Assembly (NCBI GenBank): GCA_934122395.1
Contig: CAKOWQ010000003.1
Coordinates: 186,299 to 250,298 of the forward strand
Length of the DNA stretch: 64,000 bases
Source: an uncultured Bacilli bacterium
GTDB taxonomy: Bacteria > Bacillota_I > Bacilli_A > RF39 > UBA660
Reading direction: 5' to 3'
Below, piece after piece: positions 10,689-26,927 of this stretch (positions within the stretch are counted from its first letter, which is position 1; each line of letters opens with the position of its first letter). The notes beneath the pieces were generated by a model. That model searched no databases. It was not told where the DNA came from and saw only the letters and a list, made by a program, of their open reading frames with translations. A program made the translations under genes and the position numbers.

Positions 10689-12140
10689 ATGAAAAAGAAA
10701 AGCTTATTTATTTTTATATGTGCTGTTATATTTTCTTTAGGAATGGGTGTAGATGCTAAAGAAATAACAGTATGCTCTGATGCAGCAACTTGTGATTATA
10801 CAGTTTTAAGAGATGCTACTGATGCTTCAATTGCAGGGGATGTAGTAAAATTAAAAGAAAATACTACTATAACTAGAGGAGTGTTATTACATAGTGAAAC
10901 TACATTAGATTTAGGTGGATTTACATTAACAGCTGAACCTGGTACATTTATTGCGGTAATAAACGGTAATAAAGATGTTAAAATTGTTAATGGTACAATT
11001 GAATTAAACAATGCTGCTAATGCTACAGGGCAAAATGCTAATGTGGTAATGCAAGGTGTTACTACTAAAGATGGAGCTACTACTTCATTAACAATTGCTG
11101 AAGACGTTACTATTAATTCAAATTTAAATGGTATTGTTATTCAAGCAGAGGATAAAGAATCATACAACACAATTTTAAATCTTTATGGTAAAATTAATGC
11201 TAAAGAAGTAGGTATTACAATTAATGGTTTTATTAGTGTTGTTGATGCACTTCAACCGGTAGTTAATATTTATGAATCTGCATCAATTAAAACAACAGAA
11301 GGACCTGCAATATATGCTGCTGGTTACGGAAGCTGGAACATTTATGGAGGATACTTTGAAGGAACAGAAGCTGTAAGTGTCAAATCAGGTAATATTAATA
11401 TATCTGGTGGTACTTTTAAAGCAATTGGTGAATATAAGGAAACGCCAACAGTAAATAATCGTGGATGGGAAGATACAGGTGCCGCTTTATCAATTACTTC
11501 GAGTACGAATTCTTATGCTAAAAATGTTACATTAAAAATTACTGCAGGACAATTTATAAGTAAAAATGGTCACGCATTATATGAGGGAATAACTGATGCT
11601 AATACTTCTGCTATAGTAAATGCAAGTATTACTGGTGGTATATTTACTTCAGCTACAGGAAAAGATAGTGTTAAAATCACTTCTAATAGTGATACTTTAA
11701 ATGGAGTTATTACTGGAGGAACATTTAGTACTACTCCAAGAGAAGAATTAGTTAATTCTAATGTTTCATCTTCTACTTTGGATGATGGTACTGTATTAGT
11801 TGGTTCTAAACATGGAATTACTGTAGGAACAATTGAAAATGGTATTGTAACTTTAGATAAAAACGTTGGAATTAAAGGTGAATTAATCAAACTTACTATT
11901 ACCCCAAAAGAAGGGTATGAAATAGATAAGATTGAAGTCTTGTGTGATGGTGATGAAGTATTAAGAACTGATAACGGATTTATTATGCCAGACGGTGACG
12001 TTGAAGTAAAAGTTACATTTAAGAAAGTTATTACTAATCCTAATACTTTTGATAATAGCTTAAATACATTGATAATATTAGGGGTTTGTGCATTAGGCGG
12101 ATTTATAACTTATAGAAAACTTGAAAAAAGTGCTAAATAA
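10689..12140 (+). CDS. Cell-surface protein: signal peptide, parallel-beta-helix-like repeats, Ig-like repeat, C-terminal NPNTFDN + TM + basic tail
   Basis: Signal MKKKSLFIFICAVIFSLGMGVDA; recurrent GG[YTI]F turns (IYGGYFEG, ISGGTFKA, ITGGIFTS, ITGGTFST); ..GYEIDKIEV..MPDGDVEVKVTF module; C-terminus NPNTFDNSLNTLIILGVCALGGFITYRKLEKSAK. Confidence 0.7.
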   Translation: MKKKSLFIFICAVIFSLGMGVDAKEITVCSDAATCDYTVLRDATDASIAGDVVKLKENTTITRGVLLHSETTLDLGGFTLTAEPGTFIAVINGNKDVKIVNGTIELNNAANATGQNANVVMQGVTTKDGATTSLTIAEDVTINSNLNGIVIQAEDKESYNTILNLYGKINAKEVGITINGFISVVDALQPVVNIYESASIKTTEGPAIYAAGYGSWNIYGGYFEGTEAVSVKSGNINISGGTFKAIGEYKETPTVNNRGWEDTGAALSITSSTNSYAKNVTLKITAGQFISKNGHALYEGITDANTSAIVNASITGGIFTSATGKDSVKITSNSDTLNGVITGGTFSTTPREELVNSNVSSSTLDDGTVLVGSKHGITVGTIENGIVTLDKNVGIKGELIKLTITPKEGYEIDKIEVLCDGDEVLRTDNGFIMPDGDVEVKVTFKKVITNPNTFDNSLNTLIILGVCALGGFITYRKLEKSAK

Positions 12141-23996: not shown

Positions 23997-24056
23997 TTTG
24001 ATATCTTTACATTTTGCCTATATATGTTATGCTTTATATATAATAAGGAGGATGAA

Positions 24057-24719
24057 ATGAAGAAGTTTAAATTAATTAGTATTGTATTAGCATTTATAGT
24101 ATTTGTTACTATGCCAGTTGTATATGCTCATGAAGTTGAATTAAGTAGTGATATTATTACTATTCCTACTACTAGCGAGTCTGCAATATGGAAAGGTACT
24201 AAAGTTCAAATTGCCAGTAGTTATGGAGAATATAATTTTTATTATCAATATGTAGTAATAACGGACGAACAATATAAAAATTATATAGGAATAAAAGAAG
24301 AACAAAAGAAATATGAAGCGGAGCATAAACCAGTAGCAGGTGCAACTAAAGAAGAACAAAATGCATATGAAGAAGAAATGAAAAACTATGAAAAATCAAA
24401 AGAAGGTATTTTACCATCATATGATGATAAAAAATGGATTGCATCTAGTGATAATACTGTACCAATAGATGAAGAAAAAAATACAGAACCTGCTAAATAT
24501 GTTTTATGGGTAAAAGTTGAAAGTAAAACAGGAACAGATAAAAATGCTAAATACAACGATTTAGTAGTTGTATATAACCCTACTACTAAGAGTGATGATA
24601 ATAGTAAAAGTGAAGAGGAAGCTAATCCAAGTACTAGTGATAATATAATACTATTTGCAGCAGGTGCAGCATTAATTGCTGGTGTTATGGTTGTAAGTTT
24701 TAAAAAATCAAGAGCTTAA
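24057..24719 (+). CDS. Secreted Lys/Glu-rich surface protein with C-terminal NPSTSDN + TM + basic tail
   Basis: Signal MKKFKLISIVLAFIVFVTMPVVYA; C-terminus EEANPSTSDNIILFAAGAALIAGVMVVSFKKSRA; start at ATG 24057 after AAGGAGG. Confidence 0.7.
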   Translation: MKKFKLISIVLAFIVFVTMPVVYAHEVELSSDIITIPTTSESAIWKGTKVQIASSYGEYNFYYQYVVITDEQYKNYIGIKEEQKKYEAEHKPVAGATKEEQNAYEEEMKNYEKSKEGILPSYDDKKWIASSDNTVPIDEEKNTEPAKYVLWVKVESKTGTDKNAKYNDLVVVYNPTTKSDDNSKSEEEANPSTSDNIILFAAGAALIAGVMVVSFKKSRA

Positions 24720-24725
24720 AATAAA

Positions 24726-24756
24726 ATAAAGTAGCAAAAGCTACTTTATTTTTTTG
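24726..24756. terminator. Hairpin plus T-run between convergent genes
   Basis: ATAAAGTAGC-AAAA-GCTACTTTAT followed by T-run. Confidence 0.7.
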
Positions 24757-24865
24757 TATAAAACATGATACCAGTTAACAGGATAAGGATTAATAATATT
24801 AAAAACATAATTAACAAATTAAATGTATCAGGAGTAATTGCTCCTGGATTTAATGCTACAAACAT
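24746..24865 (-). CDS. 39-aa mini-ORF (not in the ORF track): short polar head + PxTF motif + TM helix + KK tail
   Basis: Hand translation gives MFVALNPGAITPDTFNLLIMFLILLILILLTGIMFYTKK; its ATG directly abuts the CPBP stop (TAAATG); no SD of its own. Confidence 0.4.
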   Translation of the reverse strand: MFVALNPGAITPDTFNLLIMFLILLILILLTGIMFYTKK

Positions 24866-25534
24866 TTATAGTACTACTAATGCTAGTAAAATTAAATTAT
24901 AAATAACTCGTGCTATTATGTTTAATATAATATTATTGGTTTTGCTATATAGAAAAGATAAAAATAGTCCCACTAAATAGTAAGAAATAAAGAAAATATT
25001 TAGATTATTATATATCAAGTAAAATATTCCAATTAATATACTAGACACTAATATAAAGACTATATCATTGTTAAATGCTTTTCTTAAATTTTGTCTAAAT
25101 ATTAATTCTTCTATTATTGGTGAATATAGTATTAAGTAAAAACAAGATATAATAAAATTTTTACTGATACTATGTGTGATCGTTAAATCATTATTAGGAA
25201 TATTTATTTTTCTAGTAATTATAAAACTTAATATATTTACTGATAACATAATAAAGAATATTGCAAGGATAGATATTAGTATAATAATACTAGATTTTTT
25301 CTTATCTTTTATAGTTCTATCGATGCTTTTATCAATATCTTTTTTATAAACTAAATATATAATAAAAATATACAATGAATTTAGTATTATCTCATATACT
25401 GATATTAATTTATTATTATGAATACTTAATAGATTAAGAGGAACCTGTATAAAAGTAGACCATAATAAGTAACTAATAATAATTCCTAATGAAATAATAA
25501 ATTCTTTTCCATTTTTTTTATTTTTTAGTATCAC
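24866..25534 (-). CDS. CPBP-family (CAAX/Abi) intramembrane protease homolog lacking both conserved His residues
   Basis: Motif 1 SPIIEELIFRQNL present; the FxxxH position reads GIFYLIY and the HxxxN position reads ARVIYN; polytopic; GTG start without a clear SD. Confidence 0.75.
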   Translation of the reverse strand: MILKNKKNGKEFIISLGIIISYLLWSTFIQVPLNLLSIHNNKLISVYEIILNSLYIFIIYLVYKKDIDKSIDRTIKDKKKSSIIILISILAIFFIMLSVNILSFIITRKINIPNNDLTITHSISKNFIISCFYLILYSPIIEELIFRQNLRKAFNNDIVFILVSSILIGIFYLIYNNLNIFFISYYLVGLFLSFLYSKTNNIILNIIARVIYNLILLALVVL

Positions 25535-25757
25535 TTTTATACCTAGATTCTAATAGAAATATAGAAATTGTTTTAACCATTTTAAAAAACTTTTCATTAG
25601 GCCTCCTTTATCCTTATAGAAAGTTAACAAACAAGTAACTTTCTATTTTTAATTTTACCATAGAAAAGGTAAAAGTCAACATTTTGTTAACTTCGGCGTT
25701 GCTTATTGCAAGTAATCGAATAAAGTGTTATTATATAGGAACAAATCGGGGGATTTT

Positions 25758-26927
25758 ATGAGTGAAGTAACTTTAAAAGATAAGAAAGAAGTTCTTGTTA
25801 TGGCAAGTAAAGAAGAAAGGAAAGCTAAAATTTGTAAGGCTCTTATGGAAGCTAATTTTAGTCTTGTGTTTGATATCGCAAATATTCATAATTATTATGA
25901 TCAAGATGAATTAATTTCGGTAGGAACTCAAGGGCTTGTGAAAGCTGCTAATAGTTATGATACTACTAGAAATACACTGTTTAGGAATTATGCTTCAAAA
26001 TGCATTAGTAATGAGATTAATAATTTTTTAAAAAAGGCAAGTATAAGAAATGAAAATGTAAGTTTAGAAACACCAGTACAAACTAGTTATGGTAGTAAAA
26101 GATTAAAAGATATTATAATAGATGATGATCCATTTCGTAAAATATTCGATGAAGATGTTCATGCTTCTATTAGAAGTGCAATTACTTTATTACCATCACC
26201 TGAACGTGAAATAGTACAAATGCGATTTGGTTTTATTGATAATAAAATATTTAGTTTAAGAGATATTGCTAGTAAACTTCATTTATCATATGGTTATGTA
26301 AGTGAACTCTTAAATAATGGCGTAGAACTTGCTGCTATAATACTATCTAAAAAAGGAATAATAGATTTGAATAAGGACGAATATACTCTAGTTCACGATA
26401 AAAAAGGAAAAGTAAGAGCAATAAAAAAAGATAAGTTGTCAATATATAAGTATTTTAGCGATTATAGTGAAGATGAAATTAATTATGCATTATCAACTTT
26501 GACTCAAAGTGAAAGAGGATTGTTACCAAGTGCTTGTGGTGAAGCAATTCCTAATGAAATGTCTGAATTTATATATATTAGTCGAAAATTAAAAAAACGA
26601 CTTGATGCTTTTAGAGAAAATAAAGGTGCTGGTGCTGATAGGTTAACTACTGATGACTATAAAGAAATAGTTGATATATTAAATGGTGATAATATGCCAA
26701 AAAGAATTCAGGCGTTGGAAGAAAGCGAAAAAATTGTGGCATTATTAAGTTTGGGGTATGTAAATGGGAAGTATTTTTCAAGTGAATTTGTTTCAGATAC
26801 TTTAGGTATTCCACAAGAACGCGTTTTGGAAATAATTGATAAAACTGAAGAATTTGCTAGACAAGAGAGAAAAGAAGAAATGGAAAAATATCTAACCGGA
26901 ATAAAAACCAAAAGCAAAAGACCTTGA
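25758..26927 (+). CDS. Sigma-70-family factor with about 190-aa C-terminal extension carrying extra region-4-like HTH modules
   Basis: Region 2-like FSLVFDIANIH..DELISVGTQGLVKAANSYD..FRNYASKCISNEINNFL; region 4-like LPSPEREIVQMRFG..SLRDIASKLHLSYGYVSELL; then LTQSERGLL and EKIVALLSLGYVNGKYFSSEFVSDTLGIPQERVLEII. Confidence 0.65.
   Translation: MSEVTLKDKKEVLVMASKEERKAKICKALMEANFSLVFDIANIHNYYDQDELISVGTQGLVKAANSYDTTRNTLFRNYASKCISNEINNFLKKASIRNENVSLETPVQTSYGSKRLKDIIIDDDPFRKIFDEDVHASIRSAITLLPSPEREIVQMRFGFIDNKIFSLRDIASKLHLSYGYVSELLNNGVELAAIILSKKGIIDLNKDEYTLVHDKKGKVRAIKKDKLSIYKYFSDYSEDEINYALSTLTQSERGLLPSACGEAIPNEMSEFIYISRKLKKRLDAFRENKGAGADRLTTDDYKEIVDILNGDNMPKRIQALEESEKIVALLSLGYVNGKYFSSEFVSDTLGIPQERVLEIIDKTEEFARQERKEEMEKYLTGIKTKSKRP

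Follow-up and report, generated by a model that had tools for sequence, protein, structure and literature searches.

We analyzed a 64,000-nucleotide stretch of DNA from an uncultured Bacilli bacterium (positions 186,299 to 250,298 of contig CAKOWQ010000003.1; the whole stretch, very AT-rich with a GC content of 27.3%, is referred to here as the window), focusing on a minus-strand locus built around a gene for a membrane protein of the CPBP (Rce1-like) family. The locus appears to be an operon of three genes, whose products would be a 15-residue aromatic and basic micro-peptide, a polytopic protein with the CPBP fold, and a 39-residue single-pass protein translated in tandem with the latter. 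Our results firmly indicate that the micro-peptide, the remodeled CPBP protein, and the tail anchor constitute a module, with no earlier description known to us, that is conserved in low-GC gut Firmicutes; some of these bacteria harbor sporulation and germination genes. We found no account of the pairing of the CPBP protein with the 39-residue protein in literature searches on CPBP sorting, catalytic motifs, SpdC-SagB, and Abi immunity, none of which was aimed at the pairing itself. Two known themes accommodate the module, that of degenerate CPBP scaffolds and that of dedicated pairs of a CPBP protein and a C-terminal domain.

Two small genes flanking the CPBP gene

The CPBP gene (222 codons with a GTG start; 24866..25534, minus strand) is followed, with 0 nucleotides from stop codon to start codon, by the mini-protein gene (24746..24865, minus strand). 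Across the junction the minus strand reads ...GTA CTA TAA ATG TTT..., and the 39-residue product, MFVALNPGAITPDTFNLLIMFLILLILILLTGIMFYTKK, consists of a short segment predicted to lie outside the cell, one transmembrane (TM) helix, and a KK tail. An open reading frame (ORF) lying right behind the CPBP stop codon at a TAAATG junction, in a convergent arrangement with a surface-protein gene, had been pointed out in the original prediction; re-reading of the sequence reproduced these coordinates and this arrangement, and the ORF proved to be a conserved gene tied to CPBP. Relatives of the CPBP protein with 99%, 87%, 57%, 38%, and 33% identity are all accompanied by a homologous small ORF in stop/start contact, and the pairing is seen for CPBPs down to ~25% identity and in several genomic contexts. 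Depending on the locus, the junction takes the form of TAAATG, TAATG, an ATGA overlap, or a gap of 14 to 17 nucleotides that contains a Shine-Dalgarno sequence of its own. More distant CPBPs that lack the motif histidines (His-less CPBPs) and are followed by a mini-ORF were obtained from a metagenome scan (L022, L023, and L025; such numbers denote loci fetched for comparison) and from look-ups (L027, L030, L032, and L034). A profile of the mini-peptides retrieved further proteins of 40 to 63 residues, and each one with a viewable context lies directly after an Rce1-like gene. Conservation of the mini-ORF behind CPBP orthologs had been proposed as a test; in every locus that has a mini-ORF, it lies in contact with the CPBP gene or a few bases from it.

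Selection on the mini-ORF points in the same direction. Six informative pairs of sequences gave ratios of nonsynonymous to synonymous polymorphism (pN/pS) of 0.18 to 0.40, indicating purifying selection; a value of 1.18 for L015 versus L034 was discarded as an artifact of alignment register. The mini-ORF is already called as a gene in public assemblies (P0008) and is uncalled in some loci (L001 and L003 to L006). The idea that it is a split-off last helix of the CPBP protein was rejected, as the C-terminal end falls at one common position in canonical and in His-less CPBPs. Judging from these sequence comparisons, the mini-ORF is a real, conserved gene that is translationally coupled to the CPBP gene.

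The second small gene lies upstream. A micro-ORF of 15 codons (25550..25597, minus strand), identified by translation and preceded by the Shine-Dalgarno sequence AAGGAGG at 25603-25609, ends 15 nucleotides before the CPBP start codon. Its peptide, MKSFLKWLKQFLYFY, is identical in L002, L003, L006, and L010, among which the coding DNA differs at four sites, all synonymous. An analogous aromatic and basic micro-ORF of 9 to 18 codons is located upstream of every His-less CPBP locus (at ~3849 in L019, ~3730 in L022, ~4836 in L032, and ~4853 in L034), and the peptides found elsewhere include MWKWLRRWF, MWRWLTRFF, MWNWFWRAMLKWY, MLGWFRNSGLWRSLVRWF, and MPWWIKRLFGIC. When a generic filter was applied (a Shine-Dalgarno-like sequence, 8 to 20 codons, at least 4 aromatic and at least 2 basic residues, no acidic residue, and at least 1 Trp), only 12 ORFs were retained in 404 kb, and 11 of the 12 are found at the position upstream of CPBP. 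In none of the fetched loci does the 15-codon gene appear among the gene calls, and Rfam gave no match at the micro-ORF.

In most loci the micro-ORF is followed by a terminator-like hairpin, and in L019 and L034 a separate CPBP promoter then follows; in other clades the micro-ORF is a mini transcription unit of its own, with promoter and terminator. A short conserved sequence, (T)ATGTAGGG or ATGTAG, is present just before this hairpin in L008, L015, L032, L034, L021, and L023, with no match in Rfam. A Trp-leader attenuator was considered and set aside, given that the promoter between the micro-ORF terminator and CPBP is a good one in L019 and L034 and that no terminator lies between the two genes in the window.

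Motif states of the CPBP protein and homology of the tail

The window CPBP matches Pfam PF02517 (Rce1-like) over residues 126 to 215 with 47.5 bits (cut-off, 22.4; E value, 2.3e-12). It reaches no curated NCBIfam cut-off; the best model is MrtJ (NF033192) with 27.2 bits against a cut-off of 75, and TIGR03008 scores 11.9 bits against 81. A phmmer search against PDB sequences gave no match, and Foldseek against the PDB returned only noise. The predicted model of the protein displays the Rce1-type helical-bundle fold, and the best structural matches are SpdC and Rce1.

Active CAAX-type proteases are defined by the motifs EExxxR, FxxxH, and HxxxB (PMC12260438). The first motif is intact in the window CPBP, with E142 and E143 (codons at 25106-25111, minus strand, as are all that follow) and R147 (25094-25096) in the sequence IIEELIFRQ. 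At the second motif the protein reads I168...Y172 (IGIFY), with Tyr172 (25019-25021) at the His position, and at the third motif (HxxxN/D) it reads R209...N213 (RVIYN), with Arg209 (24908-24910) at the His position and Asn213 (24896-24898) retained. The histidines replaced here by Tyr and Arg correspond to those of the FxxxH and HxxxN motifs in the type II CAAX protease Rce1 (MmRce1, PDB 4CAD). The motif states were read from alignments with canonical CPBPs and with 154 cluster representatives, and both alignments agree with the original prediction that EExxxR is kept and that the two histidines are replaced by Tyr and Arg.

The 154 sequences are the best representatives in a hidden Markov model (HMM) search of 1.84 billion cluster representatives (50% identity). 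Both histidines are absent in 73 of them, and 74 are canonical. Among the canonical proteins, all seven motif positions are conserved in 72 to 74 of 74, with the F and the H of motif 2 found in all 74. The 73 His-less representatives display a different pattern. The first Glu is kept in 71 and the second Glu in 58, while the Arg of motif 1 is Arg in 34 and Lys in 30. The His of motif 2 is replaced by Asn (49 representatives), Tyr (8), Gln (5), or Thr (5), and that of motif 3 by Lys (47) or Arg (18). As far as these alignments tell, loss of the histidines is a trait of a sizeable subfamily with relaxed motifs and not of the window gene alone. A scan of GTDB species representatives with a peptide pattern that the window CPBP itself matches returned one locus only, L009, which encodes a canonical CPBP with its histidines and has no mini-ORF. 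An exact look-up of the window CPBP gave no entry, and close copies (99% identity) are present in Hadza and other human-gut metagenome assemblies. One relative, L007 (5001-5626 and upstream), looks partly decayed, with a CPBP of 166 residues that lacks the EExxxR region and a micro-ORF that stops early (VKSLLKWLK*), yet its 42-residue mini-protein is intact.

Five His-less CPBP loci (L019, L020, L021, L024, and L026) have no mini-ORF. In these, the gene after CPBP encodes a signal-peptide protein of 208 to 235 residues; the five proteins are mutual orthologs with 38 to 70% identity, and their last ~40 residues (e.g., ...FLTGAVVNDAVNNPKSLN-YVIVGLVGLVIALVGYTLF-KRR) are homologous to the mini-proteins. 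An HMM was constructed from 14 mini-proteins alone and run on 3,625 ORF segments, which were taken from the window and from all of the loci. It matched the C termini of the five larger proteins from end to end with E values of 4e-10 to 6.5e-6, with the best unrelated segment at 5.5e-3, and tblastn independently tied the tails of the larger proteins to the mini-proteins of L027 and L030. Pfam and NCBIfam hold no model for the mini-proteins, the tail, the larger proteins of the L019 type, or the His-less CPBP clade.

The shared tail of the mini-proteins and the larger proteins is tripartite, consisting of an LA[VI]VQKP...NxN motif (ALNPG...N in the window), a TM helix, and KK or KR. Throughout the family, the tail retains a Pro, an Asn that immediately precedes the TM helix, small residues where the helix approaches the cytoplasm, and the terminal pattern [FL]xx[KR][KR]; there is no Cys in the tail motif in any of 19 tails. 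In the loci examined, the tail is confined to the mini-proteins and a single family of larger orthologs rather than being spread over diverse cargo, and the tail clients adjoin CPBP in all fetched His-less loci, which are of about 14 distinct types. Most of them carry 0 to 10 residues of cargo, and in the clade of the window the mini-protein starts exactly at the conserved motif. In the L027 homolog a signal peptide is joined to the tail with nothing in between, and because of this signal peptide we infer that the mini-proteins are oriented with the N terminus outside and the C terminus inside. This suggests a reductive series, possibly running from ectodomain plus tail, through signal peptide plus tail (L027), to tail only (window). 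The mini-protein would then be the retained anchor of a partner that still bears an ectodomain of ~150 to 190 residues in some lineages.

These results bear on the earlier idea of a "sorting-signal-only" ORF. The mini-protein is indeed a stand-alone tripartite C-terminal domain, and it is homologous to the ends of secreted proteins, but these are not the NPxTxDN-tailed proteins of the window, which it does not match. The likeness of TPDTFN in the mini-protein to NPNTFDN in one of those proteins carries no weight, because TPDTFN is kept only in the clade of the window (the PDT being clade specific) and is replaced by ATQENLN, SGQKNMN, and GGSSNFN in others.

Scaffold, processing pair, and other readings

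The reading that we favor, with moderate confidence and by analogy to characterized systems, is that the CPBP protein is a non-proteolytic scaffold bound 1:1 to the tail anchor. Its canonical site has been remodeled, with the first Glu kept, both histidines replaced, and Lys or Arg placed at the position of the oxyanion-hole His. The protein would no longer act as a protease and would instead serve as a membrane scaffold or receptor. It would form a 1:1 complex with the mini-protein by binding its TM helix and juxtamembrane motif, in the manner that SpdC and SpbR hold SagB and SpsB. This reading is favored because the subfamily has lost both of the defining histidines and is relaxed at the other motif positions, because SpdC, the closest relative in structure, is a scaffold holding the TM helix of its partner 1:1, because most clients are devoid of cargo and yet under selection, and because a single cargo family bears the tail. 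In the clade of the window the mini-protein starts at the motif, and therefore cleavage would free essentially no cargo. Given the relaxed motifs throughout the subfamily, a sorting-protease role appears less likely than a non-catalytic one.

Precedents exist for such a function. The degenerate-motif homologs SpdC, LnsB, and SpbR act non-catalytically (PMC12260438), and SpdC binds the TM helix of SagB 1:1 (bioRxiv 10.1101/2020.05.21.109470), a study that also places no prenylated CAAX substrates in bacteria. In the Staphylococcus aureus complex of SpdC (LyrA) and SagB (PDB 6U0O), however, SagB is a glucosaminidase with an N-terminal anchor whose gene lies elsewhere in the genome, whereas the partner in the window is C-terminally anchored, co-operonic, and without an ectodomain; the window CPBP shares only 12% sequence identity with SpdC, and the complex proposed here is deduced from the operon coupling and the conservation. 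SpbR-SpsB, also from S. aureus, resembles the module in that a degenerate-motif CPBP homolog binds and regulates a single-pass protein, SpbR being an inhibitor of signal peptidase. It differs in that the SpbR motifs have degenerated in another way (HELYMR, FIYLD, and QIVAI), that SpsB is not a mini-protein but an essential enzyme, and that the spbR and spsB genes are not translationally coupled.

Several points weigh against a purely non-catalytic scaffold. The first Glu is retained in nearly the whole subfamily (71 of 73) and the replacements of the histidines, Asn and Lys/Arg, are themselves conserved, which may reflect an altered catalytic or ligand-binding site. A tripartite tail with a juxtamembrane motif beside a dedicated CPBP is, by analogy, also what a processing system would look like. 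Finally, the scaffold leaves the micro-ORF with no explained role. A bolder reading, which we advance tentatively, is that all three parts act jointly, the Glu-His-His site of the CPBP protein having been rebuilt as Glu-Asn/Tyr-Lys/Arg; for example, the protein could be a new type of glutamic intramembrane enzyme or of receptor, with the micro-peptide bound in a cavity open to the cytoplasm and the tail held or processed at the membrane face.

The main rival, in our estimate rather unlikely, is that the two proteins are a dedicated processing or sorting pair, in which the CPBP protein would be an intramembrane protease of an atypical glutamic type, with Glu, Asn/Tyr, and Lys/Arg in place of the Glu-His-His site, that cleaves the tail of its co-operonic client. 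In its favor, the tail adjoins the CPBP gene in all loci, its Pro and Asn before the TM helix and positions within the helix are conserved, the Glu equivalent to the catalytic one is kept and its companion substitutions are conserved, and MrtJ/JDVT-CTERM provides the precedent of a dedicated CPBP and single-client pair encoded by adjacent, co-operonic genes (NCBIfam NF033192; Haft preprint). The resemblance to that system includes the tripartite C-terminal domain of the client. On the other hand, MrtJ is a glutamic-type CPBP endopeptidase, whereas the subfamily of the window lacks both active-motif histidines and is relaxed at the Arg of motif 1 and at the second Glu. JDVT-CTERM is marked by an invariant Cys together with a DP motif, neither of which is found in the window tail, and it is borne by real cargo proteins of Pseudomonadota, whereas most clients here are cargo-less and the tail is confined to a single cargo family. 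The analogy to myxosortases drawn in the original prediction thus captures the layout, which resembles that of MrtJ/JDVT-CTERM, but fails at the enzyme, whose model is missed (27.2 bits against 75), and at the signal, which lacks the invariant Cys of known myxosortase-type tails.

Less probable still is an interpretation centered on the micro-peptide, according to which the peptide of 9 to 18 residues would be a membrane-active peptide, a signal, or a toxin, and the CPBP protein with its anchor a receptor, processing, or immunity partner. The micro-ORF is conserved at every His-less CPBP locus behind a strong Shine-Dalgarno sequence, several loci provide it with a promoter and a terminator of its own, and its peptide sequence is preserved through synonymous changes. 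Bacteriocin islands, however, are usually variable among strains, whereas this single-copy locus is situated among housekeeping genes (rpmA, obg, tig, and greA) in lineages that diverged deeply. Intact motifs are required for Abi immunity, and those of the CPBP protein are degenerate. There is also no gene for a leader peptide, exporter, modification enzyme, or sensor nearby. CAAX/Abi proteins do recur in bacteriocin and pheromone loci (e.g., SilX), where a CPBP gene lies beside very small peptide genes (PMC9298176), but those loci encode leader-bearing peptides, ABC exporters, and regulators and are accessory, whereas the module of the window is core and syntenic, is devoid of such genes, and has degenerate CPBP motifs.

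That the CPBP gene and the mini-ORF serve the NPxTxDN-tailed surface proteins as a module for sorting, processing, or immunity, as proposed earlier, now seems very unlikely. Two such proteins are encoded in the window. One is the product of the convergent gene at 24024..24719 (plus strand), which has 231 residues, a signal peptide, and the end ...EEANPSTSDN-TM-KKSRA, and which we judge to lie outside the module; the other, encoded at 10689-12140 (plus strand), ends in NPNTFDN-TM-RKLEKSAK. The proposal drew on the tail-to-tail order of the operon and the surface-protein gene in the window and its close relatives and on the superficial likeness of TPDTFN to NPNTFDN; in S. aureus, ABI/CPBP proteins reportedly influence the display of surface proteins (Frankel et al. 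2010). Against it, a surface-protein gene is found near the CPBP pair only in the lineage of the window itself, and even there the order is not fixed, with LemA and DUF3137 genes intervening in L006 (1632-3126) and L010 (10179-10770); in other contexts the pair has no such neighbor. The inserted LemA and DUF3137 genes belong to one sub-lineage and are fragmented in L010 to L013. The mini-protein HMM gave an E value of 6.6 for the 10689 product and no match for the 24024 product, and the PDT motif is not conserved. With no HMM similarity or phyletic support found, and with adjacency confined to one lineage, the suggested link between CPBP and the NPSTSDN and NPNTFDN proteins is not supported.

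The tails of these proteins suggest another affiliation. Orthologs of the 24024 product in L003, L006, L007, and L010 carry NPSTGDN, NASTGDN, NARTGDN, and NAKTGDN in their tails, and such N[PA]xTGDN tails look LPXTG-like, of the sortase type. The window tails have Ser or Phe (NPSTSDN and NPNTFDN) where the orthologs have the Gly of xTG. They score below the cut-offs of the anchor models, narrowly so for the LPXTG model (TIGR01167, 14.0 versus 15.9; Rumino_NPXTG, 10.1 versus 23.5; Gram_pos_anchor, 11.9 versus 20), and no sortase-like TLxTC motif is present in window ORFs of at least 80 residues.

It is hardly credible that the mini-ORF is a hydrophobic reading frame present by chance in intergenic DNA of high AT content (27% GC), its KK tail being the reverse complement of the T-run of the neighboring terminator. 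The plus-strand T-run at 24748-24755 does fall on its AAA AAA codons, and AT-rich DNA easily gives runs of Ile, Leu, and Phe, but the comparative data refute this reading, as protein conservation reaches loci with unrelated downstream DNA (e.g., obg, with no terminator), the translational coupling is conserved, pN/pS is low, and the HMM gives E values of 1e-17 to 1e-22 for true homologs, whereas the best background ORF reaches 5e-3.

Regulatory elements, genomic contexts, and significance

Upstream of the operon, a consensus scan detected a promoter-like site, TTGACT-16-TAAAAT with an extended -10 TG (25652..25679, minus strand), which agrees with the consensus at 10 of 12 positions as a pattern match only and is also found in L002 and L003. 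Between this site and the Shine-Dalgarno sequence of the micro-ORF lies a 5' leader hairpin, AUAGAAAGUUAC...UAACUUUCUAU (25616..25646, minus strand), with a folding energy of -11.5 kcal/mol and a weak z-score of -1.8; its sequence is mostly kept in L003, L006, and L010. At the other end, a terminator scan identified a bidirectional hairpin (24723..24752, assigned to neither strand) that the convergent surface-protein gene shares with the CPBP operon. The hairpin overlaps the stop codon of the mini-ORF and is followed by T-runs on both strands; the minus-strand RNA folds with -15 kcal/mol (z-score, -4.2) and continues into a U-rich tract. Rfam gave no match in the window, and in the related loci it recognized only L21 leaders upstream of rplU.

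Divergent from the CPBP operon is a gene of the sigma-70 family (25725-26927, plus strand). The N-terminal half of its product is SigE/SigK-like (sporulation) at ~100 bits, far under the curated cut-offs, and a C-terminal extension of ~200 residues has no family match. The gene adjoins CPBP in L004 and L005 and is absent in L007 and L010.

The genomic context of the CPBP-mini-protein pair varies with lineage. In that of the window, the order is tig/sigma, CPBP-mini, surface protein, and greA. In L032 and L034 it is mreC, mreD, M23, M50, rplU, prp, rpmA, CPBP-mini, and obg, and in L008 and L015 two genes without assigned function precede CPBP-mini and obg. The pair adjoins PASTA/infC in L027, a locus that also has gerA-type germination genes, and GTP cyclohydrolase in L030. 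The arrangement in L032 and L034 is similar to the Bacillus subtilis order spoIVFA, spoIVFB, rplU, ysxB, rpmA, spo0B, and obg, with the CPBP module at the interval of spo0B. Because of this resemblance and the gerA-type genes of L027, at least some of the hosts are probably spore formers.

Bacterial homologs of CPBP/CAAX proteins are abundant and mostly unexplained, and the few that have been solved are either proteases (MroQ and the myxosortases) or non-catalytic scaffolds (SpdC, SpbR, and LnsB). The locus described here adds two conserved small-protein genes, of 39 and 15 codons, to this picture. An obligate, coupled partner that has been cut down to a bare membrane anchor offers a minimal system in which to ask what the CPBP fold recognizes in a TM helix. 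Because the module sits among housekeeping genes, often in the interval between rpmA and obg, its placement in these poorly studied gut Firmicutes suggests a core function in the envelope or in development.

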